A DNA stretch of 42,679 nucleotides from a bacterium (lineage in GTDB: Bacteria; Babelota; Babeliae; Babelales; RVW-14): assembly GCA_023249935.1 (NCBI GenBank), contig JAHFBQ010000002.1, positions 1 to 42,679 of the forward strand, written 5' to 3'. The translations under genes and the position numbers were made by a program. The stretch's first letter is position 1. Each line of letters begins with the position of its first letter. The notes beneath the pieces were generated by a model. It was not told the DNA's origin and ran no database searches. It saw only the letters and a program-made list of their open reading frames with translations. Positions 2,024-39,603 of this stretch are shown here, in pieces.

Positions 2024-4954
2024 TTAAAATGCTTCACCAAGTGTAAGATACCATGCGTAATTGCTATCGTTTACAAATCGCTTCTTCCATTTCCATCCAA
2101 GATCAAAACGCAGAGGGCCGACAGGCGTTTTTAGGCGCAGTCCAAAGCCGGTGGCAGGATACCAACTCTTAGTGAGCCCTATGGTTCCAGCCTGACCGAG
2201 CGCGCCGATATCTTGAAATACAACACCTTGAAGGCGTTTTGAAATTATTGGAAAGCGAACCTCAAGATTTGCATTGAACATGGAGCTGCCACCTTGGATA
2301 GAATATTCCGTTGTAGTTATCTCTTCGCCATTGACCGTTATTGTTTTTGTAGAGGTACCAATGGGTGGGAGCGAATCTTTTTCATAGCCACGTACCGAGT
2401 TTGGTCCTCCGAGAAAGAATCTCTCAATGGGCATAATAGTTTCAAATAGACGTCTAAAAATATGACCAAAGCGAACGTGACCAGCAATAATGATATCTTC
2501 ATAGAGGGGATAGAAGGCAGACTGTTCCAGCGCAATGCGCACAGAATAATCGGCAATACTTGTTGGGAGCATGAGTTTGCAAGCAACAAGGCTGAAGGTA
2601 CCACGGGTTGTATTAATTTTATCATCAAGCTGGTCGATAATTATATTTGGTTCAATAAAAACATAGCGCATGTAACGATTAAGTAGTGTTGGGTCAAATC
2701 GGATATTGCCAGTAACATTGCTTGTCTTTATCCATTCATTACCAAGATTGAGACCAAAAAAGAAGTGGTCTTTGTATTCTTCGTTGAGTGCGACAATTCC
2801 ACCAACCTGATCTGCCTGAAATGCTGAAGGACTGGAGGCTATGCGTAGTGGGTGCGTAAATTCGTTGGCATATAATTTTATTTTACCCAGTAATGGAATA
2901 TTGAAGAGTGATGGTTGTTGGTATTCTAAGTTGAACTTGCGTTCAAATTTGCTTAAATCAGTATCAAACGTGATCTTGTCTGCTCGATTGGTAGGATTTT
3001 TTACTATTGCAGAAGCACCAACCTTAGCGATAATTTCTTCAGTGAACTTTATTGAATTAAGCATAGCGGTCTTGCTTTTGAATAAGGAGCTATCGCTTGG
3101 TACGTAGACGCCAGCACGTAAACGTACCTCGAATGGATCATCATCAGCTATAGTAATAATAACAGGCTTCTGGCGCTTAGTGTTTCCTTGGTGGGGTTGT
3201 ACTTGAACGCGTTTAAAGACATCTAAGCGCTTTAATTTTTTACGAGTCAGATCAATTTTCTCTTTATTCCATACATCGCCTTCTTGGAATTTTATTTCAT
3301 TTTTTATTCGGTCGAATGGCAATTTTGTATTGCCGCGAATGGTGACTTTACCAAAGGTAATTTGTGTTCCTGGTTCAATATTCCAAGAAACAAATACCTT
3401 TTTTACCGCTTTGTTTGCGTATTCGGCACTCGCGAGTGGTTCTTCTTGTAGCTCGAAGTTAACATTGGCATGCCAATAACCATCTTCTTGAAAGGTGGCA
3501 ATGAGTAGGTTCTTTTGTTCACTCAACCAGGATTGATTAAATGGAATGTGTTGATGGTTATTGCGTAAATGGAATTTTTTAAATCCAGGGAGTGATTCTA
3601 ATGTCTGATGGCCTTTTACCTCAAAACCGCCCCATAGCCGCTGAATTCCTTTGTTGATGAAGATCGTGACAATAAGTTTTCCTGAAAGTTCATTGATGTG
3701 ATTTTGTTGATCAACAATAGTAAAGTCCCAATAACCATTCTTCTCATAGAGACGCTTGAATTCATGCAATTTTTGATCAAATAAGCTTTGGTCAAAAAAA
3801 TCTTTTTCAATGAGTTCTCGCCAAAAATATGAGCTGTCTTCTTGGGCTAAGGTATTCGCGTGTTTAACTTCAATGGATTCTAGTTTTGCAGGGGTTCCTT
3901 CGTGGATGGTGAATGTATTAACATCATTCTCTTTTTCATGAGTAACTGTTGTTCCAATAAAACCTCGGCGTTCATATTCATGAATTATTTGTTCGCAAAT
4001 AATATCTGGAGAGAAGAGCCAGTTTGGCTGATCATCGCCAAGAATTTTTTCTTTAATGATGGTGCTAGAAAGAACTTTATTACCAATAAGGTAAATAATC
4101 TTTCTACTGCCGGGCTCTATAATAAATGCGATGTTAACCAATTTATGATCGGAACAGCGACTTTTTTTCATGGTAATACGCGGTTGCTCGAAGCCTTCAG
4201 CTACGAGCTTTGCTTTGAGAGAGAGCGCAATCTTTTTCAAATATTCTTTATCGTAAGCATGTTTGGAAAAAAAATCCTTAAATTCATGCTGTGTTTTGTT
4301 AATAACACTATTTACTGCCTCTGCATGCACAGGATCTGTTTGGTGCGTGATATTGATCGAATTAATGTAATAGCGCTTGCCATGGGTGATGCGAAGACGA
4401 ACTAAAATTGTTTTGTTGATTGCATTGTAATTAAGCTCATCATCAATGAGGCCATCAAAATATCCTTGATCATTTAGAAATCTCTGAATATTTTGCATAG
4501 ATTCGTCATGAAGATTACCATCAAAGACATCGCCAGGTTGTTGCAAATATTGGGCACCATATTCATATTTACCAAATAAAAAACCTGTAACTTTGACTTT
4601 GCTCAAAAGCCATTGTCCTTCAAGTCTAAACTCAAGGTGTTTACCCTGGTTACCATCAAGCAGATTGATGCTGATATTATTGAAACGCTGCGTACGCATC
4701 AGATTGCGATATGCGCGTTGGACATCGGATTTGTTAACGAAGGTGTTTGGTTCAAGGCTTACAAGATAATCAAATTCTGTTTTTGAGAAGGGAATGTCGG
4801 CGGTGAAACTTATTTTTTCTAAATAAAAAGAAGTATTTTCTATCTCACTTAATGTTTTGGTAGAAACATCAAACGATCCCCCAAGTGTTGCTGAGAGTTG
4901 TAAGGCGATTGAAAAAATGCCAAGAACTATAACGCTATAGTAAAAAAATTTCAT
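2024..4954 (-). CDS. Omp85-family outer-membrane protein, BamA/TamA-like paralog with a long POTRA region (976 aa)
   Basis: N-terminal signal peptide and a repeated POTRA-like region of about 600 aa. C-terminal barrel carries the L6 motif GGPNSVRGY and a terminal aromatic residue (..LGEAF). Confidence 0.8.
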   Translation of the reverse strand: MKFFYYSVIVLGIFSIALQLSATLGGSFDVSTKTLSEIENTSFYLEKISFTADIPFSKTEFDYLVSLEPNTFVNKSDVQRAYRNLMRTQRFNNISINLLDGNQGKHLEFRLEGQWLLSKVKVTGFLFGKYEYGAQYLQQPGDVFDGNLHDESMQNIQRFLNDQGYFDGLIDDELNYNAINKTILVRLRITHGKRYYINSINITHQTDPVHAEAVNSVINKTQHEFKDFFSKHAYDKEYLKKIALSLKAKLVAEGFEQPRITMKKSRCSDHKLVNIAFIIEPGSRKIIYLIGNKVLSSTIIKEKILGDDQPNWLFSPDIICEQIIHEYERRGFIGTTVTHEKENDVNTFTIHEGTPAKLESIEVKHANTLAQEDSSYFWRELIEKDFFDQSLFDQKLHEFKRLYEKNGYWDFTIVDQQNHINELSGKLIVTIFINKGIQRLWGGFEVKGHQTLESLPGFKKFHLRNNHQHIPFNQSWLSEQKNLLIATFQEDGYWHANVNFELQEEPLASAEYANKAVKKVFVSWNIEPGTQITFGKVTIRGNTKLPFDRIKNEIKFQEGDVWNKEKIDLTRKKLKRLDVFKRVQVQPHQGNTKRQKPVIITIADDDPFEVRLRAGVYVPSDSSLFKSKTAMLNSIKFTEEIIAKVGASAIVKNPTNRADKITFDTDLSKFERKFNLEYQQPSLFNIPLLGKIKLYANEFTHPLRIASSPSAFQADQVGGIVALNEEYKDHFFFGLNLGNEWIKTSNVTGNIRFDPTLLNRYMRYVFIEPNIIIDQLDDKINTTRGTFSLVACKLMLPTSIADYSVRIALEQSAFYPLYEDIIIAGHVRFGHIFRRLFETIMPIERFFLGGPNSVRGYEKDSLPPIGTSTKTITVNGEEITTTEYSIQGGSSMFNANLEVRFPIISKRLQGVVFQDIGALGQAGTIGLTKSWYPATGFGLRLKTPVGPLRFDLGWKWKKRFVNDSNYAWYLTLGEAF

Positions 4955-5468: not shown

Positions 5469-6608
5469 CTAGCGCGCAAACTCAAGTTTGGTGTAAAGGC
5501 TTTCGTGCTGAGTAACCATTGATCTGGCCGAGAAAGATGACAGATCTTGTACATGATTTTGTAGGCGATTGAGAAGTTGTGGATCTTCTATAAGGTTTTG
5601 TAGGTGCTGTGCAAGCGCAAATTTATCTCCTGCTGTAACAAGATAGCCGTTGAGATTATTTTGTACTACTTCTCCGATGCCGCCGACATCATAAGCAACA
5701 ACAGCAAGTCTTGCTAGGCGTGCTTCAATGACAGAGCATGGAAGCCCTTCCCAGAGGGAGCTTAGAGTGAAAATATCCCAACTATGTAAAAACTTTTGCA
5801 CGTTGCTTTGCCAGCCGTGAAGTGTGATTACATTTTGTAGATTATGGTCTTTGATCCACCATTCAATTGCTGTTCGTTGAGTACCGTCGCCAACAATTTC
5901 AAGTGTTGTTTGTGGGTGTGCACGATGAACGACCGCAAATGCTTCGAGTAAATCGAATAAATTTTTCTGTGGTTTGAAACAAGAAATAGCGCCAATCGTA
6001 ATCTTTGTTCGAGAAGGAGAAAGCTTGCGAGCAGGTTCTATGAAATGATTATCATCAACCGCGGCACGTATAATGAGGCTTTTTTTTGCAAAGCCAAGGA
6101 GTAATTTGCTACCGAGCACTTGGTCTTTGTGGGAGACGCAAATAATTTGTGTTGTAATCAGTGTTGTGACCCATTCAAGAGCGACGAATAAGACCCATTC
6201 TGGCCAAGATTGAAAATCATGAAAGCCAAAGCCATGGATAGTGTGTACGCGATGTTTAATGCCAGCAAGCAATGCTGCCCAGCGGCCTAGAATTCCGGCC
6301 TTTGTGCTATGAGTGTGTACAATGATATTGGGAAATTGTGCCTTATAGCGATGCATAAGGCGTATGAGTCCGAAGAATGTTTTAAGTTCCTGTGCAATAC
6401 CACGTATCGATAGCTCGCGCTTGAATGAATCAAGTAATATGCAGCCAGGTGTTTTTTTTGCTTCCTCAACCAAAACTCCTTCGGTACCAGAAATGAGCAT
6501 GGCATTGTGATTATCGTGTACGAGGCCTTGGTGAAGTGTTAAACAAACTTTCTGTGCGCCACCGAGTTCAAGCTTGGTCAAGATATACAAGACATTAAGC
6601 TGTTTCAT
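5469..6608 (-). CDS. GT4-family (GT-B fold) glycosyltransferase
   Basis: N-terminal LGGAQK motif. C-terminal EGLPCSVIEA...AYDVGGIGEVV is typical of GT4 enzymes. Confidence 0.85.
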   Translation of the reverse strand: MKQLNVLYILTKLELGGAQKVCLTLHQGLVHDNHNAMLISGTEGVLVEEAKKTPGCILLDSFKRELSIRGIAQELKTFFGLIRLMHRYKAQFPNIIVHTHSTKAGILGRWAALLAGIKHRVHTIHGFGFHDFQSWPEWVLFVALEWVTTLITTQIICVSHKDQVLGSKLLLGFAKKSLIIRAAVDDNHFIEPARKLSPSRTKITIGAISCFKPQKNLFDLLEAFAVVHRAHPQTTLEIVGDGTQRTAIEWWIKDHNLQNVITLHGWQSNVQKFLHSWDIFTLSSLWEGLPCSVIEARLARLAVVAYDVGGIGEVVQNNLNGYLVTAGDKFALAQHLQNLIEDPQLLNRLQNHVQDLSSFSARSMVTQHESLYTKLEFAR

Positions 6609-6648: not shown

Positions 6649-7599
6649 TTAAACCTTTGTGATTAACATGAGTGTAATGATCATTGCATAAATAATTGCT
6701 GACTCAATGAAAGCAACGACGAGCAAGGTAGTGCGGAGCAAAATTGAGTATAAGTCAGGATTTTGAGCGATTCCCTCTACGCTCTTTGAGGCGGTAAATC
6801 CTATACCAGTCGCCGTGCCCAGCGCGCCTAAGCCAATGGTTAAAGCTGCGGTAATTAGGATTAATGCATCACTGATAAGTGCGCCATCAAGTGGCCTGAA
6901 TAATATGATTATACCGATAAGTAAGCAAAAAATGAGAGGTGTCTCAATAATTGCTTCAAGGAGGAGCATAAATGGAAATATTTTGTTATAGGCTTCTTTG
7001 TTTGTTCCAATGCCCTTGCATGCTGCCTGTGTGAAAATTGCTTGTCCAATGGAGGGCCCGATACTGCCAAGACCAACGGCAAGGCCTGCTGCAAGTCCTT
7101 GTAGGCCGAATAATAATTCAGGGTTTGCATTTATGCGTGTTCGAATAAGCAGTGACACGATAAACGCGATAATGACTGGTGCTTCCATGATCGATTGCGC
7201 AAGTAGCATAACTGTTGTAACTTTTTGGGAAAAAAAAGGTTGGCGGCTAATGCTTTCTGCTGCGGCTCTAACAACAAAGCTTGAGGCGATACTGACCGCT
7301 CCTCCTGCAAAGCCGATTGCGGCAGCGATACCTAGTTCACCAACGGCAATGCCGATAGTAAGTGGCTGGGTGCTGAAAATAATCATAAGGGCTGTTACAA
7401 GTGCAATGATAATGCCGCTTTCAATTAGCGCAAGGCCAATGATAAGGGCACGAAAATTTGCTTGATAGCTGCATGGTTGTCGCTGGATTGCGGCGATGGT
7501 GGCAATACTTGCTATACCTTGTCCGATGCCGCCGCCGAGAACAGCAATTGCCAGTGTTAGAAAGGCTGCGCTGTAGTGAATGATTTGAGCTATGAGCAT
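6649..7599 (-). CDS. atpE: ATP synthase Fo c-subunit-like protein with four fused c hairpins (8 TM)
   Basis: 316 aa containing four tandem units. Each unit has a Gly-rich helix 1 (GGGIGQGIAS, GFAGGAVSIAS, GLGSIGPSIGQA, GLGALGTATGIG), a polar loop (RQP, RQP, TNK, QNP) and a helix-2 Glu (LIESG, IMEAP, IIETP, FIESA). It lies directly downstream of the a subunit. Confidence 0.75.
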   Translation of the reverse strand: MLIAQIIHYSAAFLTLAIAVLGGGIGQGIASIATIAAIQRQPCSYQANFRALIIGLALIESGIIIALVTALMIIFSTQPLTIGIAVGELGIAAAIGFAGGAVSIASSFVVRAAAESISRQPFFSQKVTTVMLLAQSIMEAPVIIAFIVSLLIRTRINANPELLFGLQGLAAGLAVGLGSIGPSIGQAIFTQAACKGIGTNKEAYNKIFPFMLLLEAIIETPLIFCLLIGIIILFRPLDGALISDALILITAALTIGLGALGTATGIGFTASKSVEGIAQNPDLYSILLRTTLLVVAFIESAIIYAMIITLMLITKV

Positions 7600-7610
7600 A
7601 CAAAGACCTT

Positions 7611-8444
7611 TCAGTGTGGTTGTGTGTCTTCTTGGTGAGCTATGCCCATAGAAAGATAGGTAAGTGTGAGCATCATAACAACGAATGATTGAATAAGTCC
7701 TTCAAAAACCCCAAAAAAGAGTTGTGCCCAAGTGAGAAAGAATATGAGAACAGATATGCCGCTTAGAATAGAGGCAAGAATGCCTTCTCTTGGGAGTAGG
7801 TTAACATGAGCGAGGAGTGTGTGTAGTGCAAAATAGATGACAGCTAGGACGAGAAAATAATTGGCATACCCCTGTACAAAGTTGACCATCATCATAAACA
7901 CAACGCCACCGCCGAGAATGTTGCCAAATAATCGAAAAGACATTGAAGCAATTTTGGCGAGTTCTCCAACAATATTGATTGGAGCCAAAAGAAAAAAAGG
8001 CTGTAAGTATTCTTTAGAATATCCCAAGATGCCATGTGCTCGAATTTTTTGATATTGAACATAACAAAAACTTGAAAGACCTATTGCCAGCGTTGTATTG
8101 AGGTCTCTTGTTGCTTCATCTAAAAATGGGAACAGGCCAATAATGCAACAAAAAAGGGTGAATAGGAATAGCGATGAAACAAAAGCAAAATAGCGGAATT
8201 CAAAAAAACCGAAAGCGTCTTTAGTTGTATTCATAAGAAAACGAACAACGACTTCAAAAAGAATTGAAATTCTGTTGGGTCCTCTCTTGAGTGCCCAGCG
8301 TCCAATGCACACCAGTGAAAAAAAAAGTATCATCGCGGCCCAAGTGTCTCTTAGGGTGTCGAGATTAATCGTCCAAAAAAAGTGCGTAAATCCAAGATTT
8401 TCTAGTGGGCGGATTTGGTAGTAATCAAAAATAGAGACGCTCAT
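7611..8444 (-). CDS. atpB: ATP synthase Fo a subunit
   Basis: Polytopic membrane protein with the conserved SFRLFGNILGG stator-arginine motif. Start set at the ATG (8444), which overlaps the upstream stop as ATGA and is preceded by AAGAGGA. Confidence 0.85.
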   Translation of the reverse strand: MSVSIFDYYQIRPLENLGFTHFFWTINLDTLRDTWAAMILFFSLVCIGRWALKRGPNRISILFEVVVRFLMNTTKDAFGFFEFRYFAFVSSLFLFTLFCCIIGLFPFLDEATRDLNTTLAIGLSSFCYVQYQKIRAHGILGYSKEYLQPFFLLAPINIVGELAKIASMSFRLFGNILGGGVVFMMMVNFVQGYANYFLVLAVIYFALHTLLAHVNLLPREGILASILSGISVLIFFLTWAQLFFGVFEGLIQSFVVMMLTLTYLSMGIAHQEDTQPH

Positions 8445-8737
8445 AACATCCTCTTTGTATGGACAAACAGGCTCAGTAGGAAGCCGGCTACTATGAAGAT
8501 AGAGCATGTCTGTAAGTCGATCCGTCCTGTGGAGTGCAGTGCAAAAATAATGCCAATAATGATCAGAAAACGCATAACGAGAAAGAATATATGTTGTCCT
8601 ATGGCAGATAGCTTACCTGGATTTTGGCCCATAGAAAAGCCTTTAATGAGGGACTTTGTTTGCTTTTTGAAAAGCAGGGCATACAAGAATCCAATGGCTA
8701 TTCCGCATATGGCTGAGATAATTAATTGGCTAGGCAT
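8441..8737 (-). CDS. Small 3-TM membrane protein, AtpI/AtpR-like
   Basis: 98 aa with three hydrophobic helices and an Arg inside the second (FLVMRFLIIIG). Translationally coupled to the a-subunit gene by a 4-nt overlap. Its position matches atpI or N-ATPase atpR. Confidence 0.5.
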   Translation of the reverse strand: MPSQLIISAICGIAIGFLYALLFKKQTKSLIKGFSMGQNPGKLSAIGQHIFFLVMRFLIIIGIIFALHSTGRIDLQTCSIFIVAGFLLSLFVHTKRML

Positions 8738-8990: not shown

Positions 8991-9569
8991 ATGAATGCAA
9001 AAAAGATGATACTGTTACTCGGACTTGCTGTTGGGGTAGGGCAAGATTGCTTAGCGAAGGCTAGTGCTGTACACAGGGCTCCAGAGCAGGCAAGGCCAGC
9101 CGTTCCGGCAGTTGGTGTGCAATACAAGCTTGGTCAGTTATGGTCATTAATTAATACCTCCAACCCAGCACAAACATCTAATTTTATCTTAGCATCGCTA
9201 AGTGGGCAGGTTATGCAGGATGTGGTACAAACTCAGGGGGCGTTTCCTGATGGTTCAGTCGCTGCTGATCGTGTGAATTTTGGTGGTGTTGTGATTAATA
9301 GAGCTTGGATTCAAGCAAATCAAGGTGTGCAGGTTCAGTTGCAAGCGGATCCAGCATTAGTCAATTATCTAGTGCAGCATAACAGAGTTTCGTCTGGAAA
9401 GAATGCTCGTGATTATGAACGGATATTGTTGTACTTTGTGCTAAAAATCGGCGCAGCTAGCTATCGTTTTTACCTGAATGATCCTTTTCCAGGGGGAATT
9501 CAAGGGAAGGTTAATCCAGCTCGTATGATTATTAAAAAATGGGATCTTGACGCTATGTATAGGCCATAG
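8991..9569 (+). CDS. Hypothetical secreted protein
   Basis: Signal peptide MNAKKMILLLGLAVGVGQDCLAKA and a strong SD (GGGGAGAAGGGGGA). I recognise no family motifs. Confidence 0.6.
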   Translation: MNAKKMILLLGLAVGVGQDCLAKASAVHRAPEQARPAVPAVGVQYKLGQLWSLINTSNPAQTSNFILASLSGQVMQDVVQTQGAFPDGSVAADRVNFGGVVINRAWIQANQGVQVQLQADPALVNYLVQHNRVSSGKNARDYERILLYFVLKIGAASYRFYLNDPFPGGIQGKVNPARMIIKKWDLDAMYRP

Positions 9570-9623: not shown

Positions 9624-9697
9624 TTGCATACATGACTCTGGTCGCGTTAGCATCTCCTAATGAAGTACAATTCCCCTTTTCTAGAAAGGAATACTAT

Positions 9698-10810
9698 ATG
9701 AATGGGATGATGCGATATTGGCGCACGTTAGCGCTATTTTCTTGTGTGTTGTTATGTCGGGATTTGACGGCAAATATATTTTATTCTACTGCCAATGCAG
9801 ACCGAAATAATACTCAGAATCTAACAAATAGTAATGTCAATGCTTATCAAAGCACCACATACACTTTTACTCGGCCATCTCACGAACTACGTGGTCTATT
9901 TATGCTTAAAGATGGATTTACTATTAACTCTGGTGTTACCGCATGTTGGAATGCTGAAGGGGTTGTCGATGGACCTATGATATTTGCTGCTACAAGCTCT
10001 ATTCTTACGCTTTCTACTAGTATGCGCCTTGGGCCTAAAGGACAATTTGCAACAACAGATCATAAGGTCACGGCAAGCGCCAACGCATTTTTTCTTGGTG
10101 GAAATGATGCGCGGCTTACTACAACAATGCGCAATTACAGTTCTTTGAGAATAAATGGCTCTGGGTATGTGTTTACTATACAACCAACCTCTGGTGGCGT
10201 AAATCCCGGGGGTGAATTTTTCTTTACTACCCCTACAGACAATACTTGTCGCCTTAATGAAATGGTGCTTGCCTGTGGGAAGGGGTCGGCAAGGGGTGCT
10301 ATTTTTAATAGCCCTACCCATATATCCAATTCAATAATCTTAAGTGCCCCACCTGATGGCCAATATACAAAATTCGGAGCTGGATCAAGCTACTCACTGA
10401 CAATTACGGGGGATGTACGCATTGAAGGTTTTGGTACCCGCTTTGACAATGGCTCTAGACCAATCACAATTGGCAGAAACTCAATGTTGTCAGTTGGTCC
10501 TGGTATTGCTCTGACAGGGGTATCAAGTTTGACAATGACCGACACAACATCTGTATTACACCTAGATGGCTGTGATTTTTATGTAGGGTCTTCTGGTGTG
10601 CAGATGAATAGAGGGACCTTGATTTTTGATGGCAAGGTTAGGATTTTAAATATCAACTATGGTGGCGATCCTCTCAGTCCAAATACGGTTATGGCAAACG
10701 GATTTGTACTTGGTAGTGGGGCTGGGTTTGCCGGTCAAGATGTTAATGTGATGGTTCGAGGCGGAGCATCTGTGATAGTTGCCGGAGCTATGCATTATAA
10801 TCACGCATAA
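9698..10810 (+). CDS. Hypothetical secreted protein, Gly/Thr/Ser/Asn-rich, possibly beta-helix/adhesin-like
   Basis: Start set at the ATG preceded by AAGGAA. Signal peptide MNGMMRYWRTLALFSCVLLC. Low-complexity beta-rich composition. No autotransporter barrel is seen. Confidence 0.55.
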   Translation: MNGMMRYWRTLALFSCVLLCRDLTANIFYSTANADRNNTQNLTNSNVNAYQSTTYTFTRPSHELRGLFMLKDGFTINSGVTACWNAEGVVDGPMIFAATSSILTLSTSMRLGPKGQFATTDHKVTASANAFFLGGNDARLTTTMRNYSSLRINGSGYVFTIQPTSGGVNPGGEFFFTTPTDNTCRLNEMVLACGKGSARGAIFNSPTHISNSIILSAPPDGQYTKFGAGSSYSLTITGDVRIEGFGTRFDNGSRPITIGRNSMLSVGPGIALTGVSSLTMTDTTSVLHLDGCDFYVGSSGVQMNRGTLIFDGKVRILNINYGGDPLSPNTVMANGFVLGSGAGFAGQDVNVMVRGGASVIVAGAMHYNHA

Positions 10811-10830
10811 CGTTTGATTGGATTTTTATT

Positions 10831-10876
10831 CGCAACGTCGTCTCGGCTCTGAGCCGGGACGACGTTGCGTTTTGAT
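10831..10876 (+). terminator. Long GC-rich hairpin terminator
   Basis: 12-bp outer stem CGCAACGTCGTC/GACGACGTTGCG plus inner stem GGCT/AGCC, followed by TTTTGAT. Confidence 0.65.
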
Positions 10877-10900
10877 ATTACTATTGATTCCGCTCTTCCC

Positions 10901-13285
10901 CTACGCTCCCAGCTGAATATACATTTTTACAACTGAGTCCGCGTTAAGCGAGAGTGAGTTGATGCCGGCCTTTACCAAAAAAGCTGCTACCTCTGGGTAG
11001 TCAGATGGCGCCTGACCGCAGATACCAATCTTTTTTCCTGCTTTGCGGGCACCGTTAATGGCCATAGTAAGCATTATTTTTACTGCTTCGTCGCGTTCAT
11101 CAAAGATTGGTGCAACGAGTGCAGAGTCGCGGTCAACGGCAAGTGTCATCTGTGTTAGATCGTTTGAACCGATAGAGAACCCGTCGAAAAGCTTCGCGAA
11201 TTGCTCGATCAAGATAACGTTTGAAGGAATTTCACACATCATGTACAGCTCAAGACCATGCTGTCCGCGGTGTAGGCCATATTGTTTCATGGTATCGATT
11301 ACAAGCTTGGCTTCATTGACCGTTCGTACAAATGGTATCATAAGAATAACATTGGTCAGCCCCATTTCTTCACGTATTTTTTTCATGGCAGCGCATTCTA
11401 GCGCAAAGCCTTCTGTATATTGTGGATGGTAGTAACGTGAAGCACCACGAAAGCCGATCATTGGATTTTCTTCTTGCGGTTCAAAAAAATTACCACCAAG
11501 TAATTCGCGATATTCATTGCTCTTAAAATCTGACATGCGGATGATGACCGGTTTGGGGTAAAACGCTGCGGCGATCGTGCCGGCCTCCTGTGCGAGCTTA
11601 TCGATAAAAAATTGTTTCTTATCTTGGTAATCATACGTGAGTTTATCGAGTTGTTTTAATACTGCTTGATCAGTTATTTTCTCCGGATGTATCAATGCCA
11701 TGGGATGAACCTTAATGCCGTTATTTATGATAAATTCAAGACGGGCTAACCCAACCCCTGCATTAGGCAGTTTTGCTAAATTGAATGCTTCATCTGGATT
11801 GCCAACATTAAGAAGAAGATCTATTTTTGGCGTTCCTAACTTGGCAATTTCAGTTTTTTCTATAGAAAAAGGAACATTGCCTTCATACGCGTAACCAACT
11901 TCACCTGAGCTGCAATCAAGTGTAATAATTGCACCATCCTTAATTGATGTTGTGCCGCTGTGTGTACCAACAATGGCGGGGATACCCAACTCTCGACTAA
12001 TGATGGCGGCATGACAGGTGCGGCCGCCGCGGTTAGTAATGATTCCGCCGGCAATTTTCATGATTGGCTCCCAATCAGGGTCGGTCATGTCGGTGACAAT
12101 GATATCGCCAGGCTGGACACTACTCATGAGATGGGCTGATTCAATAACAATTGCTTTACCCGTACTGATGTGATGCCCAATGCTTTTCCCTTGACAGAGC
12201 ACCTTGGTAGTAGCTGTTTTTTTTATACTAAATTCTTCGATATAGGGTAGACCTTGTTTATTGGCATGTACCGTTTCAGGCCGTGCCTGTACGATGTACA
12301 ACTTGCCATCGATGCCATCTTTGGCCCACTCAATATCCATCGGCGTCCAGGAGCCGCGCTTAGCTGAGTAGTGATTTTCAATGATCTGAGCTTGCTTTGC
12401 AAGTTCAAGAATTTCATCATCACTGAGTACCCAGCGTTTTCGATCGTGTGTTTCGACGGGGACTATCTTTGTAGGAGTGTTGCTTTCGTTGCTGTAGATA
12501 AGTTTAATTTCCTTGCTGCCCATACGCTTTTTTAGGATGGGGCGAAATTCTTTTGCTAGCGTCGGTTTATGGACATAGTATTCATCTGGGTTAACACTGC
12601 CCTGTACAACCATTTCACCTAGGCCGTAAGAACCGGTAATGAAGATGACGTCACGAAAGCCGCTCTCAGTATCAAGGGTGAAGATCACACCGGCGCTGGC
12701 AATATCTGAACGAATCATTTTCTGTACGCCGATTGAGAGCGCAACATCCATATGTTTAAAACCGTTATCAATGCGATAAGAAATAGCTCGATTAGTAAAC
12801 AGTGATGCAAAGCTATGTGTAGTCATGCGTAATAATTCAGCAATTCCCTTGATGTTGAGATAAGTTTCTTGTTGTCCAGCAAAAGAAGCTTCAGGTAAAT
12901 CTTCGGCAGTGGCTGATGAACGCACAGCTATGCTACAATCGTTACCATAGCGAAGTTCAATTTTTTTGTAGGCAGCTTTGATTTCATCAATAAGTTGAGG
13001 TGGGAGTGGTGCATTGGTGATGAGTGTGCGAATCTCATGACCAATGGCTGCAAGCTTATCGAGATGTTTTTTATCAATTTGTGCCAGCAGGGTAGTAATT
13101 GGTGCTGAGAGTTTGTTTGTTTCTAAGTGGCATCTATAACCATCAGCTGTTATCGCAAATCCTGAGGGAACGCCGACGCCTTGAGCACTTAGATTATTTA
13201 TCATTTCTCCAAGCGAGGCATTCTTGCCGCCAACAACGGCCACATCGTTATTATTAATCTCTTCAAAAAATTTGATGTACTGCAT
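10901..13285 (-). CDS. ppsA: Phosphoenolpyruvate synthase (pyruvate, water dikinase)
   Basis: 794 aa. N-terminal VGGKNASLGEM ATP-grasp motif, phosphohistidine swivel motif GGRTCHAAIISRELGIPAIVG, and a C-terminal PEP-utilising TIM-barrel domain. Confidence 0.95.
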   Translation of the reverse strand: MQYIKFFEEINNNDVAVVGGKNASLGEMINNLSAQGVGVPSGFAITADGYRCHLETNKLSAPITTLLAQIDKKHLDKLAAIGHEIRTLITNAPLPPQLIDEIKAAYKKIELRYGNDCSIAVRSSATAEDLPEASFAGQQETYLNIKGIAELLRMTTHSFASLFTNRAISYRIDNGFKHMDVALSIGVQKMIRSDIASAGVIFTLDTESGFRDVIFITGSYGLGEMVVQGSVNPDEYYVHKPTLAKEFRPILKKRMGSKEIKLIYSNESNTPTKIVPVETHDRKRWVLSDDEILELAKQAQIIENHYSAKRGSWTPMDIEWAKDGIDGKLYIVQARPETVHANKQGLPYIEEFSIKKTATTKVLCQGKSIGHHISTGKAIVIESAHLMSSVQPGDIIVTDMTDPDWEPIMKIAGGIITNRGGRTCHAAIISRELGIPAIVGTHSGTTSIKDGAIITLDCSSGEVGYAYEGNVPFSIEKTEIAKLGTPKIDLLLNVGNPDEAFNLAKLPNAGVGLARLEFIINNGIKVHPMALIHPEKITDQAVLKQLDKLTYDYQDKKQFFIDKLAQEAGTIAAAFYPKPVIIRMSDFKSNEYRELLGGNFFEPQEENPMIGFRGASRYYHPQYTEGFALECAAMKKIREEMGLTNVILMIPFVRTVNEAKLVIDTMKQYGLHRGQHGLELYMMCEIPSNVILIEQFAKLFDGFSIGSNDLTQMTLAVDRDSALVAPIFDERDEAVKIMLTMAINGARKAGKKIGICGQAPSDYPEVAAFLVKAGINSLSLNADSVVKMYIQLGA

Positions 13286-13455: not shown

Positions 13456-13776
13456 ATGATTTCACAAGAAACAATTCAAGAGGCAATACAGCGCTTGGTT
13501 AAAGCATACAATCCGCTTATCATTTATTTCTATGGTCCATATGGATGGGGAACTCCAGATGATGATGATGATCTAAATATCTTGCTCATAATCGAGTCAT
13601 CAAATGAAAAAGCTCATAAAAGGGGATATAAGGCATTTGATGCATTATTCGGACTAGAAATTCCCTCGAGGGTAATTGTTTTTACAAAAGAAGAGTTTGA
13701 TATGTCCTCTCAAGACATAACATCACCAACTCATGAGATAAAAAACAAAGGGAAGATTGTCTATGCCAGGCCTTAG
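13456..13776 (+). CDS. Minimal nucleotidyltransferase (MNT/MntA-like antitoxin-type)
   Basis: 106 aa with a pol-beta NTase motif region YGPYGWGTPDDDDDLNILLI. Overlaps the downstream HEPN gene by 14 nt. Confidence 0.8.
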   Translation: MISQETIQEAIQRLVKAYNPLIIYFYGPYGWGTPDDDDDLNILLIIESSNEKAHKRGYKAFDALFGLEIPSRVIVFTKEEFDMSSQDITSPTHEIKNKGKIVYARP

Positions 13777-14140
13777 AGATTGGTTGAGAAAAGCATCAAG
13801 CGATTTAAAGGCATCAAAAAAATTATCTGATGATAATGAAACGCTTGATTGTTCAGTATTTCATACACAACAATGTGCGGAAAAAGCCTTCAAAGCATTT
13901 ATTGTGTTTACACAACAAGCAATTCCAAAAACACATGACCTTAAGTTTTTATTAGAACATTGCGCAAAAATTGATTCAGATTTTTTATTTCTGTTGGATG
14001 AAAGCATAGTTTTAGACGCTTATGGGTATGATTCAAGGTATCCCAGTGACAATTTTTATGTTGATAAACAAAGCACAATCGATGCTATTGAAATGGCAGA
14101 AAAAATCTTAATTACCATAAAAACTAAAATTAGTTTATAG
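13763..14140 (+). CDS. HEPN-domain protein (toxin-type partner of the NTase)
   Basis: HEPN-like helices HTQQCAEKAFKAF and THDLKFLLEHC. Start set at the ATG (13763) preceded by AAGGGAAG. The ORF track start at 13757 is a TTG. Confidence 0.8.
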   Translation: MPGLRDWLRKASSDLKASKKLSDDNETLDCSVFHTQQCAEKAFKAFIVFTQQAIPKTHDLKFLLEHCAKIDSDFLFLLDESIVLDAYGYDSRYPSDNFYVDKQSTIDAIEMAEKILITIKTKISL

Positions 14141-17896: not shown

Positions 17897-17925
17897 GGGC
17901 CACTCGATCGAGTGGCCCATTTTTT
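17897..17925. terminator. Rho-independent terminator shared by convergent ssrA and the mscK-like gene
   Basis: 9-bp stem GGGCCACTC/GAGTGGCCC with loop GATC, then ATTTTTT. It abuts the minus-strand stop codon at 17924. Confidence 0.7.
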
Positions 17926-20900
17926 ACTGATCAAACGAGAATTGTACGGGACTGCTTGACGAAGTTTTGCCGCCATGAATGACCCTTTGAGGTAGTCCAA
18001 AGCGGATACCCTTCGCTCTGAACGCCTTAAAAATTTCTTCACGCAGCGTAGCTGCAATCATCCATTGTTCCTGTACACGGCGAGCACTAATGAATGCTCG
18101 AGCAAGGAAGTAGATACCTGCTTCTTCAAAATCATCAATGCGAATAATGATGCTTGGAACACGTAGGATAATTGGATTACTCTGCAGTACTTCCTGCAAA
18201 ATTTTCTTTACATCATCAACGTTTGAATCATAGTCTACTAAGATTTTGACTTCAAACCCAACGGCAAAGCGTCCTTTACCCCAGTTGGAAATGACCTTCC
18301 CAACCATATCTTTGTTTGCAATGATTACTGAGTGATTAAGACGAGTCATAATTGTTGTTGTGCGGGCATCAATTTTATGTACGACTCCTTGATACTCAGT
18401 ATTGTTATCAAACCGTACATAATTTCCAACTTCAATAGGGCGTTCGATAAGAACAAAAAAACCTGCAACATAGTCAGTTAAGATATCTTTGAGTGCAAAG
18501 CCAAGACCAACTGCGAGCGTTGTTCCTATGTACCAAATGAGTTGTTCTAGGTGAATTGATATAAAGCCAAGTAGAAAACTCAAGCAGATTGTGAAGTAGT
18601 GTACAATTTTAGTGACGGTGTTTTGTGTGCCAGGCTCGGTACGAAGAATATCGAAAAGTCTATTGAGTACCAAGCGATGTATAATCGAGGAGGCCAAAAA
18701 GCCGCCGACAACAAAAAGAATTAATGTAATGAATTGAATGAAGCCAAATTTTTTATCAACACCAATAGGTACAACCATTGTTTCTGATAAAAAGCGCCAG
18801 AAATCTTCGATCGAGACATTAAATTCCCAGATGCGTGCAATGATAAAAGCACTCAAAAGTAGTAGTATCAAGAAGCTAAAAATAACAAAGAAGCCATAGT
18901 ACGTTTTGGCATGCTCAAACTTGTCGGTGATTTCTTCGTCGCTTTCCTTCATAAACATGAAGACAGCATATTTTCGAACATACCCATGTGTTAAAAACAT
19001 GCCATAAATAACCAGAGCTGTAAGCGGGATGCTGAAACTAAGAAACGTTGCAAGGTTGCCATAGCCAACAAATGAGCGAGACAAGAGGAAGAGTGATATG
19101 ACAAATGTCATCAATGGATAATAAAAAGTATCTAATTGTTTTTTAATCCATTGGCTGAATGACGATGCGTCGGGCAAGAAATAGAGGAAGTGCTCTTTAG
19201 AAAAAATAACTATAGGGAGCATAATCAGGGCGCTTGTTTGCATAGCAGAGAGAAGCTGTGTCAGTGCAAGCGATCCATAGGGCAAAAGATGAACTGCGGC
19301 CTGTCGTAGTGGTATGATTATGGCAAATATATAGCAGTACGTGGCGAGTAGTAATTCTATGCCCTCTTGAAATTTTTCCGGGAAAGATAGAAAGCTGATT
19401 TTTTTATTTAATGCTCTAAGGCGAAGCAGTAAATTTCTCGCAAGGAAAATAAAAAGTGGAATGGTGATTAGATAAAACAGAGAAATATAGTATGGCAGAG
19501 CATATGGTTTAAGCAGGCTGAATGGACCAAAAAAATTGAAGGCGATGTGTAGGTAGAAAAATAACCATGAGCCCGATAGCAACACATTTTCTTGTAAAAA
19601 CTGTAGAGCTCCTAAGCCTATTGTTGCATAGAGCAGACTTTTATCATTCTTATTATTACCTTGAATAGAGCCTAAAAGTCGTGAAAATAATATGATGCAA
19701 AGCTTGAACAAGGCTATGAAGCTGATGAAAAACATAAAGAGTAGTAATAAGTTAAGGACATGCTGCCAAGTGAGCATCTTTAGCGTGGCAAAAAGAGCGG
19801 AAAAGCTTAAATGTCTTGAGGCGTCAAAAAAGAGGTGTTTAACAAAAGCCTCGGCTTCGTTTAAAGCTCTTACTAAGTCGTTTAATGACAGTGCGTTTGG
19901 CGAGCGTTTCCAAAGTCCAAAGCGAGAACGGTGATTTTCAAGGTTTTCAATAATGAGATTGTATTGGCCCAAAATTTTTTCATAACGAGTTAAGTAGTCT
20001 GTTGAGGCACCAATGTATTCTTGGCTAAGGCTGAACCAGGCTGTTACTGATTGGCGAGATTCTTCTAGATTCCTATTAATTTGAGCGAGTTCATTTTCAT
20101 GATCAGAGAAGATTGAGGGGGCTGAAGCATTGATTTTAGCCTGAATGATCTTGATGTCTTCTAGTGCTCGTGAGCGGTCGCTATAGCTCTTGAGTACCTC
20201 ATCATGCTTATCCTTCATTTTTTTGAAGAGGCTGAGGGCGATATCTTTGTGATTTTTAAATGTTTGTGCAAGTTCACTTGCATTTGCTCTACCACGGAAA
20301 AGCTTGTAACGAACGTCTACATCGTGGGCAATTATTTCTCTGCTTTGGACTGCCAAGTCAGCAAGTTCTCTTTTAATGTTTAAAAAATCAATCTCACGTT
20401 CTAGTACATGAATAATGCTGGTGCTTTTGTGGATTTCTGATTGCAAGACGTGATATGCAACAGAATCGGAAGTTTCGCGATTTTGGCCTATAAAATCTTT
20501 GAGTTGCCGTTGGAGGTTGATGCGTAGCGTTGCAATGTGTGCCTTATCAGCCTTTTTAGCATCAATCTTTTTTGATAAAGTTTCTTTGATGCGTACAGCT
20601 TTTTGATTTGCTAAATTTGCCTCTGCTCGAGCGCCCTCAACATCATAGCTGGTGAGACTGAGCCCTTTTTCTATGCGAGAAAGTAGATATTTTTTGTTTT
20701 GAAGTTGAATATCTAGTAATTCTACGGCATCACTTTGTGCTGCTATTTCAAGCTCTAATCGAGTAGTTTTTGTTTTAGAAAGTTCTATCTTTTTTTGTAA
20801 TAGTTGTGTTTCTAAGTTAAAAATCTCATTTGATAATTTAAGGTGTGCTCCTGTGGTTGTGCGATTTGACGAAGATTCTTCCGTCAATGTTTTTGCGTGC

Positions 20901-21523
20901 TCTCTTCCGGAGACTTCAAGCCGTTTTTGCAATGAGGTGATTGATTCAGTCTCGGTAATTTTTTGCTTAGTAAGATCGTCACGCTTTTTTCGTTCAGTAT
21001 CAAATTTAGAATGTAGCGTGCCGGTTTCTGATTGAGCCTCACGCAGCTCTTGCCATGAATAAGCAGCTCTTTGTTCAGCGCCAAGTGTACTTTGTACGGT
21101 GAGATAGTCCTTGGTGGTTTTTATGTGAGCACTTATGACGTCGGCGGTTTCTTTGAGTTCTTCTTGGATGCTTGACAGTGCCTGCTTAATCTCACTCAGC
21201 ACTGTAATTTTTTTATTTTTAAGTACAGCTTCTTGTTCATTTCGAACATAGGAAAGACTGTATTTAACGTCATCAATCTGATTGTCGATGCGCAAAATCT
21301 CGCTGCGTAAAATTGAAATAGATTCAGCCAACTGCTTATTATGCGCTATTTGATCGCTCTGCAATTTTTCTAAAAGTTTCTTTTTTTGTTCAATGACACT
21401 AAAAAACGCAACCGGAGGTTTTTCAGCATTGGAGAAACCAAAACTTGAAAAGCTTTGTCCTAGAGATGTGAGAAACGAGATGGGTATTATTATTAAAAAA
21501 ATCAGAATAAATTTTTTTTGCAT
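17924..21523 (-). CDS. Large MscS-family mechanosensitive channel (MscK/KefA-like)
   Basis: 1199 aa: signal peptide, about 550 aa of coiled-coil periplasmic region, multiple TM helices, and a C-terminal MscS core (GLGFALKDILTDYVAGFFVLIERPIEVGNYV). Confidence 0.85.
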   Translation of the reverse strand: MQKKFILIFLIIIPISFLTSLGQSFSSFGFSNAEKPPVAFFSVIEQKKKLLEKLQSDQIAHNKQLAESISILRSEILRIDNQIDDVKYSLSYVRNEQEAVLKNKKITVLSEIKQALSSIQEELKETADVISAHIKTTKDYLTVQSTLGAEQRAAYSWQELREAQSETGTLHSKFDTERKKRDDLTKQKITETESITSLQKRLEVSGREHAKTLTEESSSNRTTTGAHLKLSNEIFNLETQLLQKKIELSKTKTTRLELEIAAQSDAVELLDIQLQNKKYLLSRIEKGLSLTSYDVEGARAEANLANQKAVRIKETLSKKIDAKKADKAHIATLRINLQRQLKDFIGQNRETSDSVAYHVLQSEIHKSTSIIHVLEREIDFLNIKRELADLAVQSREIIAHDVDVRYKLFRGRANASELAQTFKNHKDIALSLFKKMKDKHDEVLKSYSDRSRALEDIKIIQAKINASAPSIFSDHENELAQINRNLEESRQSVTAWFSLSQEYIGASTDYLTRYEKILGQYNLIIENLENHRSRFGLWKRSPNALSLNDLVRALNEAEAFVKHLFFDASRHLSFSALFATLKMLTWQHVLNLLLLFMFFISFIALFKLCIILFSRLLGSIQGNNKNDKSLLYATIGLGALQFLQENVLLSGSWLFFYLHIAFNFFGPFSLLKPYALPYYISLFYLITIPLFIFLARNLLLRLRALNKKISFLSFPEKFQEGIELLLATYCYIFAIIIPLRQAAVHLLPYGSLALTQLLSAMQTSALIMLPIVIFSKEHFLYFLPDASSFSQWIKKQLDTFYYPLMTFVISLFLLSRSFVGYGNLATFLSFSIPLTALVIYGMFLTHGYVRKYAVFMFMKESDEEITDKFEHAKTYYGFFVIFSFLILLLLSAFIIARIWEFNVSIEDFWRFLSETMVVPIGVDKKFGFIQFITLILFVVGGFLASSIIHRLVLNRLFDILRTEPGTQNTVTKIVHYFTICLSFLLGFISIHLEQLIWYIGTTLAVGLGFALKDILTDYVAGFFVLIERPIEVGNYVRFDNNTEYQGVVHKIDARTTTIMTRLNHSVIIANKDMVGKVISNWGKGRFAVGFEVKILVDYDSNVDDVKKILQEVLQSNPIILRVPSIIIRIDDFEEAGIYFLARAFISARRVQEQWMIAATLREEIFKAFRAKGIRFGLPQRVIHGGKTSSSSPVQFSFDQ

Positions 21524-27659: not shown

Positions 27660-27809
27660 ATGATCGGATCCTCGGATGTCTCCATTGTACAAGTTCCCCT
27701 CAATTATTTATTGTCACATCCCATAAGGAAAATCAAGAAAACATCGATTCTTGCAGCTTGCTTTTTTACAAACAGCAATTGATTGCCTTTTTGTTTAAGC
27801 GGGTTGTAC

Positions 27810-27823: not shown

Positions 27824-27879
27824 AGAAAGAAGACTGCTTTTCTTAATTGGGTGGGGATTTCTTACGCAAAGGCGCAATA

Positions 27880-37455: not shown

Positions 37456-37614
37456 AGAGGATCCTTTCTTTAAACCAAAATCCTAACCCATAAATTCCAT
37501 CGATGCAATCGCCTTGGACTTACGCCATGGATACCGGTATTTACAAAAATTCAATCTATTCGTATCCTTGTCTGGCATAAATCAACAAGCCGTATGGTTA
37601 CCCAAGGAGTTTTT

Positions 37615-39603
37615 ATGGATGTCCTACAATTTTCCATGATTTTTGTCGGCATTGCCCTGGCAGGGCTTGCATTGACAGCGCTTATTTTTGCCAAAGTAGT
37701 CAGCTTTAAAAATACGGATGTCCGCTCGGCGCATATCGCGCGGCTTATTCGTGAAGGAGCTATGACTTTTCTGTTCAAGGAATACGCCATTTTGGTAGGT
37801 GTTATAGCAGTTGCCTTTGCATTGCTTTCATACGTGATGCATCTTGCTGGCGGCGCGGCTTATGCTGTGGGGGCATTGTCTTCTATGTTAGCTGGTTACA
37901 TCGGTATGAAGGCGGCTACACGTGCTAACGAGGCAACGACCATCGCGGCAAGAGACCGTGGCGAACGCAGCGCATTTTTAACCGCTCTTTTGGGTGGTTC
38001 AGTCATGGGCTTTGTTGTGGCAAGTTTGGGACTGCTTGGTCTTGGCGGGATCTTCTTTCTTTGTGCTAGTCATGATCCACTTGAGTTTGTAAAAATTTTG
38101 ACATGTTTTGGTCTTGGTGCTAGCTCAATCGCTCTGTTTGCTCGCGTGGGCGGAGGTATTTATACCAAAGCTGCTGACGTTGGCGCAGACTTGGTTGGCA
38201 AAGTTGAAATGGGGATTCCTGAGGACGATCCACGTAACCCTGCGGTGATTGCTGATAACGTTGGTGATTGTGTTGGTGATACTGCTGGTATGGGTGCTGA
38301 TATATTTGAATCATATGTTGGTTCTGTCGTTGGCGCAATGGCGCTAGGTGTGACAGCTTTTGCAGGCAGACTTGAATATATCTCCTTGCCAATTATGCTG
38401 TGCGCGATTGGCTTGATTGCATCCTGCTTTGGCATGTTGTCTTCTTTTATTATTCGCATGAAAATCAGACACTTACTTCATATGGCAACTTACATCGCAA
38501 TTGCTGTTTTTGTTGCCGGTTCATATGCGTATCTTTCGTACATGAATATGAATATGAATCTTTTTGGTTCCATTGCATTGGGTGCTATTTCAGGTCTTAT
38601 TATTGGAGCTGTAACTGATTACTACACCAGTGGTCGCCCAATAAGACAATTGGCAGAGACATCAAAATCTGGAGCTGGAACAAATCTAATTTTTGGGCTT
38701 TCCATTGGTTTTGAATCTGTTGTTGCACCGATCTGTGCAATCGCTGTTATTGTATTTATTTCGCACGAATACTTTGGTGGATTATTTGGTGTATCGCTTG
38801 CAGCAGTTTCTATGTTGGCAACCGTTGGTATCACCATGACAATCGATGGTTATGGGCCGATAGCTGACAATGCTGGTGGTATTTCAGAAATGTCTGGGTT
38901 TGGTCCTGAAGTGAGAAAAATTACCGATCACCTTGATGCGCTTGGCAACATGACTGCCGCGCTTGGTAAGGGCTTTGCAATAGGTTCTGCTGTGTTTGCA
39001 GCCTTGGCAATCTTTGCTGCTTATTGTGAATATTCACATATCACAAGCCTTGATCTTCAAGATCCATTGGTAATTACTGGTCTCTTTATTGGTGCTACCT
39101 TGCCATACTTACTCTCTGCATTTACGATGCGCGCCGTAGGCCGTGCTGCGTGGAAGATGGTGATTGAAGTACGTCGTCAATTCAAAGAGATTCCAGGTCT
39201 GATGGAAGGTAAAACTGAGCCTGATTACAGTCGTTGCATTGGTATCTCAACGCATGCTGCATTGGTTGAAATGATCGTTCCAGGGTTGATTACTATTGCA
39301 GCTCCAGTATTTATCAAATACATTTTTGGCATCCATGGCAAGATGGCCCTTGGTGGTTTCTTGGCAGGCGCGACGGTGTCTGGTGTTTTACTTGCGCTGA
39401 TGATGGCAAACGCTGGTGGCGCATGGGATAACGCTAAGAAGTTTATCGAAGCAGGTAATTTTGGTGGGAAAGGCAGCGACGCGCACAAGGCGGCAGTTGT
39501 TGGTGATACTGTTGGGGACCCATTCAAAGACACATCAGGTCCATCTCTCAATATCTTGATTAAACTTATGTCGATGATTTCGCTCTTATTGGCGATGATC
39601 TAA
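37615..39603 (+). CDS. hppA: Membrane-integral pyrophosphatase, K+-dependent type with Na+-pump-like gate residue
   Basis: Motifs DNVGDCVGDTAGMGADIFESY, GNMTAALGKGFAIGSA and DTVGDPFKDTSGPSLNILIKLM. ATG at 37615 is preceded by AAGGAG. Confidence 0.95.
   Translation: MDVLQFSMIFVGIALAGLALTALIFAKVVSFKNTDVRSAHIARLIREGAMTFLFKEYAILVGVIAVAFALLSYVMHLAGGAAYAVGALSSMLAGYIGMKAATRANEATTIAARDRGERSAFLTALLGGSVMGFVVASLGLLGLGGIFFLCASHDPLEFVKILTCFGLGASSIALFARVGGGIYTKAADVGADLVGKVEMGIPEDDPRNPAVIADNVGDCVGDTAGMGADIFESYVGSVVGAMALGVTAFAGRLEYISLPIMLCAIGLIASCFGMLSSFIIRMKIRHLLHMATYIAIAVFVAGSYAYLSYMNMNMNLFGSIALGAISGLIIGAVTDYYTSGRPIRQLAETSKSGAGTNLIFGLSIGFESVVAPICAIAVIVFISHEYFGGLFGVSLAAVSMLATVGITMTIDGYGPIADNAGGISEMSGFGPEVRKITDHLDALGNMTAALGKGFAIGSAVFAALAIFAAYCEYSHITSLDLQDPLVITGLFIGATLPYLLSAFTMRAVGRAAWKMVIEVRRQFKEIPGLMEGKTEPDYSRCIGISTHAALVEMIVPGLITIAAPVFIKYIFGIHGKMALGGFLAGATVSGVLLALMMANAGGAWDNAKKFIEAGNFGGKGSDAHKAAVVGDTVGDPFKDTSGPSLNILIKLMSMISLLLAMI

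Follow-up and report, generated by a model that had tools for sequence, protein, structure and literature searches.

A natural four-hairpin c subunit of the F-type ATP synthase conserved in the Dependentiae

In every rotary ATPase, the ion-to-ATP ratio is set by how many c hairpins and active carboxylates there are, and the basis of ring size is a long-standing question. The window analyzed here, a 42,679-nucleotide (nt) stretch of contig JAHFBQ010000002.1 from a bacterium of the Dependentiae (TM6/Babelota), carries an open reading frame (ORF), atpE, that bears directly on it. An earlier note on this DNA had read the ORF as a single polypeptide made of four F-type c hairpins, all of which retain the ion-binding Glu. 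Is this one natural protein, and, if so, what kind of rotor would it build? The comparisons described here confirm that the ORF is a natural covalent tetramer of F-type c hairpins, each with a mid-membrane carboxylate, which we call c4. Our overall reading, to which we assign a probability of roughly 70%, is that the c4 encoded by atpE of the Dependentiae serves as rotor subunit in an F-type ATPase operating as an ATP-driven ion pump. The earlier note knew of no precedent; likewise, a full-text literature search yielded no account of any natural c subunit with four hairpins, whether in Dependentiae or elsewhere, and the protein is apparently undescribed.

The gene and its hairpins are laid out as follows.

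6649..7599, minus strand: atpE(c4), ORF of 316 amino acids; PF00137 and TIGR01260; eight transmembrane helices
7366..7599, minus strand: hairpin 1, residues 1-78; loop R40-Q41-P42, Gln27, E60 (codon 7420..7422), Ser61
7129..7365, minus strand: hairpin 2, residues 79-157; loop R119-Q120-P121, Ser106, E139 (codon 7183..7185), Ala140
6889..7128, minus strand: hairpin 3, residues 158-237; loop T199-N200-K201, Gln186, E219 (codon 6943..6945), Thr220
6649..6888, minus strand: hairpin 4, residues 238-316 plus stop; loop Q279-N280-P281, Ile266, E299 (codon 6703..6705), Ser300, Tyr304

The reading frame runs on the minus strand, which the earlier note had not given, from an ATG at 7599..7597 to a TAA at 6651..6649, with 316 codons and zero internal stops. 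A Shine-Dalgarno-like AAGG lies 7 nt 5' of the start codon, which is itself separated by an 11-nt gap from the stop codon of the upstream gene, atpB. The whole protein matches PF00137 in four stretches (expect value, E, 5.1e-41; 139.2 bits against a cut-off of 24). When each quarter was translated separately and scored against the same gathering score of 24 bits, every one passed alone: hairpin 1 with 39.6 bits, hairpin 2 with 38.1, hairpin 3 with 49.0, and hairpin 4 with 50.7. The loop and carboxylate motifs quoted in the earlier note were all found in place, the latter being LIE60SG, IME139AP, IIE219TP, and FIE299SA. Successive loop residues (R40, R119, T199, and Q279) are spaced by 79, 80, and 80 residues, and each hairpin aligns without gaps to the c subunit of Ilyobacter tartaricus. 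In this alignment the loop residue corresponds to Arg45 and each carboxylate is kept 20 residues beyond it, exactly as Glu65 stands relative to Arg45. The equivalent of Gln32, 13 residues before the loop residue, is Q27, S106, Q186, and I266 in the four hairpins; as the earlier note had claimed, Gln occupies this position only in hairpins 1 and 3.

An AlphaFold2 model of c4, built from a 48-sequence alignment, has eight long helices (residues 2-40, 42-74, 82-119, 121-158, 162-199, 201-233, 242-279, and 281-315), with a predicted local distance difference test score of 93.9 and a predicted template-modelling score of 0.88. The linkers between helices in this monomer comprise 3-8 residues. By sequence, the best match in the PDB is the c1 subunit of Acetobacterium woodii (4bem_J, E 9.6e-16, over residues 161-313). 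Foldseek also ranks this chain first for the model (E 2.6e-5, 34% identity), followed by two-hairpin proteolipids of the V-type; for 2bl2_A, the TM-score is 0.80 over 162 columns. Among solved PDB structures there is no four-hairpin c chain.

The protein passes two NCBIfam models for F-type c subunits, TIGR01260 (77.3 against a cut-off of 43.95) and NF005363 (93.7 against a cut-off of 71). Its carboxylates and its adjoining a subunit also fit the F-type c family, from whose single-hairpin architecture of ~70-90 residues it departs. A V-type K identity was considered and rejected: NF011483, NF004913, and NF005124 scored 49.4, 40.2, and 32.7 against 188, 211, and 127, respectively; the neighboring a subunit is F-type (PF00119), with no V-type stator; and the window protein reads E-E-E-E, whereas a V-like protein would have at least one hairpin without a carboxylate. 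Also rejected was membership of the N-ATPases (alternate F1Fo, atpDCQRBEFAG), for which TIGR03322 scored 94.5 against 130.85 and TIGR03306 scored 81.1 against 302.1. The operon of that family is unmatched at this locus, where beta and epsilon do not lie upstream, nor b, alpha, and gamma downstream.

More than 245 homologues of c4 emerged when 5.8 billion proteins were searched, and nearly all of the best 120 are 310-329 amino acids long. Their named sources are candidate division TM6, Candidatus Dependentiae, and Candidatus Babeliales, and their database label is merely "ATP synthase F0 subunit C". When each GTDB species was represented by one genome, a c4 of about 316 amino acids turned up in at least 135 species genomes. 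No match was obtained when c4 was looked for in IMG/VR viral contigs. For closer study we used loci from 82 different species, consisting of 80 retrieved of the 135, the window, and one further locus; 81 of them carry c4 as one uninterrupted ORF. Between the window and the closest species genome (L002, 81% identity), the nonsynonymous divergence (dN) is 0.12 with synonymous divergence (dS) saturated, and constraint is alike in all four hairpins. Judged by these sequence comparisons, the c4 gene is conserved phylum-wide under purifying selection, and the fusion is an ancient and conserved hallmark of the Dependentiae.

The sole broken frame among the 82 loci occurs in L055 (around 10001-10911), where c4 falls into fragments of 100 and 244 codons; either a frameshift error or a pseudogene is possible there.

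These data bear on the suspicion that the window ORF is itself an artefact or a pseudogene, that is, four c genes merged by a sequencing or assembly error, or a decaying array. Nothing beyond the unusual length speaks for it, apart from the split in L055, which is one locus in 82. Against it, length and register are the same in the database homologues and the species genomes counted above, each hairpin is under strong purifying selection, and the linkers are too short to accommodate stop or start signals. Pairwise identity among the hairpins is 22-32%, similar to that between the c subunits of Escherichia coli and I. tartaricus, and an examination of the c4 DNA for tandem or long direct repeats found none that could collapse. 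Because of the comparative data we regard this explanation as refuted, its residual probability being negligible. The earlier note had thus been right to call the hairpins strongly diverged rather than a collapsed repeat, and the hidden stops or frameshifts that it considered between hairpins are refuted by the 81 intact frames.

Conservation extends to the residues that would matter in a rotor. Among the 120 closest homologues the carboxylate of hairpin 1 is kept in 100%, that of hairpin 2 in 95%, that of hairpin 3 in 92%, and that of hairpin 4 in 99%. Position 60 is E in all 120 and E or D in every member of a wider set of 244 full-length proteins, and position 139 is E in 114 of the 120 and Gln in 89 of the 244. 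Within the wider set, E219 and T220 are found in 222 and 220 sequences, position 299 is E or D in 234, and Y304 is present in 224; the commonest carboxylate patterns are EEEE (129), EQED (58), and EQEE (19). In the loops, R40 and Q41 are present in 120 of the 120 close homologues and R119 in 119. The R-Q-P loop is near-invariant in hairpins 1 and 2, whereas hairpin 3 has xN(K/R) and hairpin 4 a variable xxP. In F-type c subunits, the polar cytoplasmic R-Q-P loop contacts gamma and epsilon.

A neighbor-joining tree of 81 species proteins, rooted at its midpoint, separates a four-carboxylate clade of 41 species, which includes the window, from a sister clade of 40 species in which hairpin 2 carries Gln (rarely Met) and hairpin 4 carries Glu or Asp. 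Thus, the claim that all four hairpins retain Glu stands for the window protein and its clade; it does not stand family-wide, with Gln in hairpin 2 of about half of the species.

How the four hairpins arose is less clear. The earlier note had proposed duplication of a heterodimeric unit, an origin that pairs hairpin 1 with hairpin 3 and hairpin 2 with hairpin 4. Profile-profile scores were 83.5 for hairpins 3 and 4, 76.1 for 1 and 4, 73.0 for 2 and 3, 60.8 for 1 and 3, 51.0 for 2 and 4, and 43.0 for 1 and 2. The pairs expected to be closest are therefore among the weakest, ranking fourth and fifth of six, and this origin is unsupported. The divergence among hairpins is probably too deep for the order of duplication to be recovered.

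Three genes adjoining c4 complete the picture of the locus.

7611..8444, minus strand: atpB, F-type a subunit, 277 amino acids from the Met at 8444; PF00119, E 1.7e-34; the mechanical ORF reaches 8507
8441..8737, minus strand: AtpI-like membrane protein, 98 amino acids; its TGA overlaps the atpB ATG (ATGA)
5469..6608, minus strand: family 1/4 glycosyltransferase; PF00534 and PF13439; 41 nt downstream of c4

The a subunit has the essential stator arginine, Arg171, in the motif SFRLFGN (codon 7932..7934, numbered from the Met at 8444), and among solved structures it is closest to a subunits from chloroplasts and bacteria, with SFRLFGN aligned. In all 82 loci the a-subunit gene immediately precedes c4 in the same orientation, and an iterated hidden Markov model search found a positional homologue of the AtpI-like gene directly upstream of atpB in 77 of them. 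Viewed by BLAST, the 98-amino acid ORF is seemingly confined to the nearest relative; by itself it has no significant family match, and hhalign comparison with three AtpI-like proteins was negative. Matches to PF03899 (ATP-synt_I) were obtained for 6 of 25 members of its family (best E 4.8e-4), and because these are weak and appear only in the family-wide scan, our naming stops at "AtpI-like". The AtpI-like gene, a, and c4 constitute a separate three-gene Fo module. Downstream of c4, the glycosyltransferase gene is found on the same strand in 59 of the 82 loci and has AGAGG before its ATG; it is probably co-transcribed with c4, although we make no claim that its product belongs to the ATPase. 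Further downstream there is often an acylphosphatase gene and a gene of the Omp85 family.

The residues of c4 can be assigned to ion sites by reference to solved rings. In I. tartaricus, the site is built from Gln32 and Glu65 of one hairpin and from Val63 (through its carbonyl), Ser66, and Tyr70 of the neighbor; the equivalents of the latter three in NtpK of Enterococcus hirae, Leu61, Thr64, and Tyr68, precede Gln110 and Glu139 in the chain (PMC2359735). Given the order in NtpK, the second ligand set of each c4 site is taken to come from the preceding hairpin, which predicts the following sites.

Site 1: Q27 and E60 of its own hairpin; S300 and Y304 of the preceding one (hairpin 4 of the neighboring protomer)
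Site 2: S106 and E139 of its own hairpin; S61 of the preceding one
Site 3: Q186 and E219 of its own hairpin; A140 of the preceding one
Site 4: I266 and E299 of its own hairpin; T220 of the preceding one

By this assignment each c4 would contain four chemically different ion sites, and the full Gln-Glu-Ser-Tyr set would occur only at site 1, between protomers. In many sister-clade sequences (loci L035-L081, for example L080, 10001-10939), the Gln32 position of hairpin 1 carries Glu, in an 'ESLS' pattern. The same sequences have Thr at all four Ser66 positions, and site 1 would thus contain two carboxylates.

How might such a subunit work? All TM6 genomes studied encode an ATP synthase, ATP/ADP translocases, and a membrane pyrophosphatase and are without an electron transport chain (PMC4776705), and for Chromulinavorax an ATP synthase that works in reverse has been proposed (PMC6561590). 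Because the literature describes no respiratory chain together with import of host ATP, the enzyme would operate mainly in reverse. We envisage that c4 is inserted as eight helices with its four polar loops on the cytoplasmic side. The ring would contain 8, 12, or 16 hairpins, depending on whether it closes with two, three, or four copies, and it would rotate past Arg171 of the a subunit. The RQP loops of hairpins 1 and 2 would be the docking site for F1, and hydrolysis of host-derived ATP would drive ion export and the upkeep of the membrane potential. Fusion would set the ring at a multiple of four hairpins while leaving each hairpin free to specialize, and in the sister clade, without the carboxylate of hairpin 2, the ions moved per turn would be down by a quarter. 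Loss of the carboxylate in one hairpin is the gearing principle of V-type enzymes (PMC9171764). A more specific version, in which the rotor consists solely of c4, for example as (c4)3 with 12 hairpins, has in our view slightly less than an even chance of being correct. It would imply a four-step periodicity of sites, a three-fold match with F1 if the ring is c12, and two gears in the two clades, with 4 and 3 ions per c4, respectively. If true, no natural F-type rotor before it would have combined a genetically fixed stoichiometry with non-equivalent sites.

Several points weigh against the proposal of a c4 rotor in an ATP-driven pump. One is a matter of principle, in that the V-type gearing argument does not account for a benefit of fusing hairpins with every carboxylate kept. 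Another concerns the remainder of the enzyme. No gene for b, delta, alpha, gamma, beta, or epsilon is present in the 42.7-kb window, and searches by Walker motifs and by phmmer detected neither b nor F1 genes in the 10-kb flanks of c4 at the 82 loci. The phmmer queries, a full set of F1Fo subunits from L083 (a locus with a different fused c subunit, described below), were run against all ORFs of the 82 Dependentiae loci, and only a and c were recovered. The presence of b and F1 genes in the same genomes rests on general statements in the two genome papers. One could therefore suppose an Fo-only module, in which the AtpI-like protein, a, and c4 form an ion conductor or rotor without F1, as a relic or a repurposed channel in an ATP-importing parasite: the three Fo genes always lie apart from any b or F1 gene, and no F1 gene of the phylum was directly observed. 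However, other bacteria and chloroplasts commonly have their atp operons split, which counts against this idea, as does the near-invariance of the F1-contacting RQP loops in hairpins 1 and 2. Moreover, an uncapped Fo would be a proton leak and should be selected against, as is generally known from E. coli Fo, and an ATP synthase is reported in all TM6 genomes studied (PMC4776705; see also PMC6561590). We consider the Fo-only explanation very improbable.

A further weak point is that the search for other c subunits covered the flanks only: no second PF00137-like ORF occurs within 10 kb of c4 in the 82 loci. In a hybrid rotor like that of A. woodii, a single-hairpin c encoded elsewhere in the genome would complete the ring, the size of which would not be bound to fours. 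The closest solved relative of c4, A. woodii c1, works as a component of such a rotor, and three other poly-hairpin c genes with fetched loci (L082, L083, and L084) all adjoin a gene for a single-hairpin c. Yet in hybrid systems the single-hairpin gene is immediately adjacent, whereas the Dependentiae loci have no such ORF over 10 kb. In addition, c4 keeps four carboxylates (three of four in the sister clade), while most hybrid-type partners keep one, with the five-Glu protein P0195 (L084) as the exception. A hybrid rotor thus seems improbable, and we infer that c4 is the sole rotor subunit, in a ring that would be restricted to multiples of four. The earlier claim of such a restriction accordingly survives if c4 is the only ring component, but it assumes that no separate single-hairpin c joins.

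The other points against our proposal concern the coupling ion. H+ is favored, because at each of sites 2, 3, and 4 a Na+ ligand, Gln32 or Ser/Thr66, is missing (the residues there being S106, A140, and I266, respectively). Site 1, on the other hand, looks Na+-competent from its residues, and the same machine could be Na+-coupled, or promiscuous for Na+ and H+. The between-protomer set of Gln27, Glu60, Ser300, and Tyr304 equals the I. tartaricus ligand set minus Thr67, and many sister-clade sequences combine Glu at the Gln32 position of hairpin 1 with Thr-Thr in hairpin 4, a pairing that we take to resemble the two-carboxylate Na+ motif of Fusobacterium. The window also encodes a membrane pyrophosphatase (37594..39603, plus strand; PF03030, 803 bits) that, compared with the Vigna enzyme, has Glu at position 6.53 rather than 6.57 (segment ADIFESYVGS against SDLFGSYAES) and Ala at 12.46 (segment GNMTAALGKG). 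In K+-dependent pyrophosphatases, E6.53 with A12.46 is a signature of Na+ or Na+/H+ pumps (PMC10897367). The signature in the window differs from the H+ pump assumed in the TM6 genome papers, and it hints at a sodium economy or gradient. Still, because all sites pass one a-subunit channel, a Na+ ring with one Na+-competent site in four is unlikely, and we regard Na+ coupling or promiscuity as the less probable alternative to H+ export by the c4 rotor, albeit one to be taken seriously.

If the proposed rotor exists, c4 would be a phylum-wide natural F-type rotor subunit with four sites kept and with ligand sets that are all different. Its ring could only have 8, 12, or 16 hairpins, and its hairpins would be separately mutable. 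The sister clade, having lost exactly one of four carboxylates, would amount to a natural gear-ratio experiment on the same scaffold in an ATP-driven pump. Bacterial fused c subunits are far commoner than the published list suggests, and c4 offers a simple sequence marker for the Dependentiae.

Elsewhere in the window, the following features were identified.

13757-14140, plus strand: HEPN-domain protein; PF05168, E 7e-24; overlaps the ORF at 13456-13776
2024-4954 and 23510-26017, minus strand: two Omp85-family outer-membrane proteins, one of them BamA-like
17924-21523, minus strand: 1199-amino acid protein with a C-terminal MscS-type mechanosensitive channel domain at residues 1013-1175

The 106-amino acid ORF at 13456-13776 (plus strand) has no family match; judging by length and location, it could be the nucleotidyltransferase half of a HEPN/MNT toxin-antitoxin pair. 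The BamA-like Omp85 protein has 835 amino acids and five POTRA repeats, and in about 25 species the other, of 976 amino acids, keeps its syntenic place downstream of the c4, glycosyltransferase, and acylphosphatase genes. The first 1000 residues of the 1199-amino acid protein gave no family match. There was no Pfam match for the ORFs at 8991-9569 (plus), 9632-10810 (plus), 26139-27692 (minus), and 27847-30366 (plus), nor any NCBIfam match for the first two of these. Of these ORFs, the one of 192 amino acids, located immediately upstream of the atp module, is matched by homologues at 10 related loci, and for the one of 392 amino acids no homologue was found outside the window.

How does c4 compare with known systems? 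Like the V/A-type proteolipids (E. hirae NtpK, the eukaryotic 16-kDa c, and some archaeal c subunits), it is a ring subunit made of fused hairpins, and the E-Q-E-(E/D) pattern of the sister clade shares the V-type feature of one hairpin without a carboxylate. V/A-type proteolipids, however, pair with a V/A-type stator, whereas c4 adjoins an F-type a subunit (PF00119). A 2022 account lists archaeal c subunits with 1, 2, 3, or 13 hairpins, along with the two-hairpin c1 of A. woodii, whose rotor contains one c1 and nine single-hairpin c2/3 subunits (PMC9171764); four hairpins are missing from the numbers listed there. A. woodii c1 (4BEM chain J) resembles c4 as a covalently multiplied hairpin in a bacterial F-type context, and an 'IYA[LM]' motif in the outer helix is common to the last hairpin of c1 and hairpin 4 of c4. 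The two nevertheless differ: c1 has two hairpins, the second with Gln in place of Glu, and is a minority component of its ring, whereas c4 carries Glu in each of its four hairpins and lacks a neighboring single-hairpin gene.

Covalent fusions have also been made by design. Engineered c2, c3, and c4 in E. coli (Fillingame) and c2, c5, and c10 in Bacillus PS3 (Yoshida) reportedly form functional rings. Such constructs show that a fused rotor can work mechanically and that joining hairpins limits the possible stoichiometry. They consist of identical hairpins with designed linkers, in contrast to natural c4, in which the hairpins have diverged and possess their own conserved residues.

Other natural, unpublished poly-hairpin c proteins came from an exhaustive representative search of public metagenomes and are ~30-38% identical to the window c4. 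Among them, P0257 and P0254 have four hairpins, with one Glu (1/4) and three Glu, respectively; P0160, P0165, and P0195 have five hairpins, with one (1/5), one, and five Glu. P0222, from Candidatus Gracilibacteria, has 7 hairpins and P0190, from Asgard archaea, has 15, while P0265 (6 hairpins) and P0123 (13 hairpins) are both Trp-rich, possibly through mistranslation of UGA=Gly. In L082, L083, and L084, the poly-hairpin c gene lies next to that for an F-type a subunit and is followed by genes for a single-hairpin c and b; L082 ends after b, and the two longer loci continue with delta, alpha, gamma, and beta, with epsilon only in L083. The arrangement in these loci is that of A. woodii, except that the fused partner is longer, making an extended hybrid rotor. 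The Dependentiae depart from it: here c4 stands alone next to a, and Fo is split from F1.

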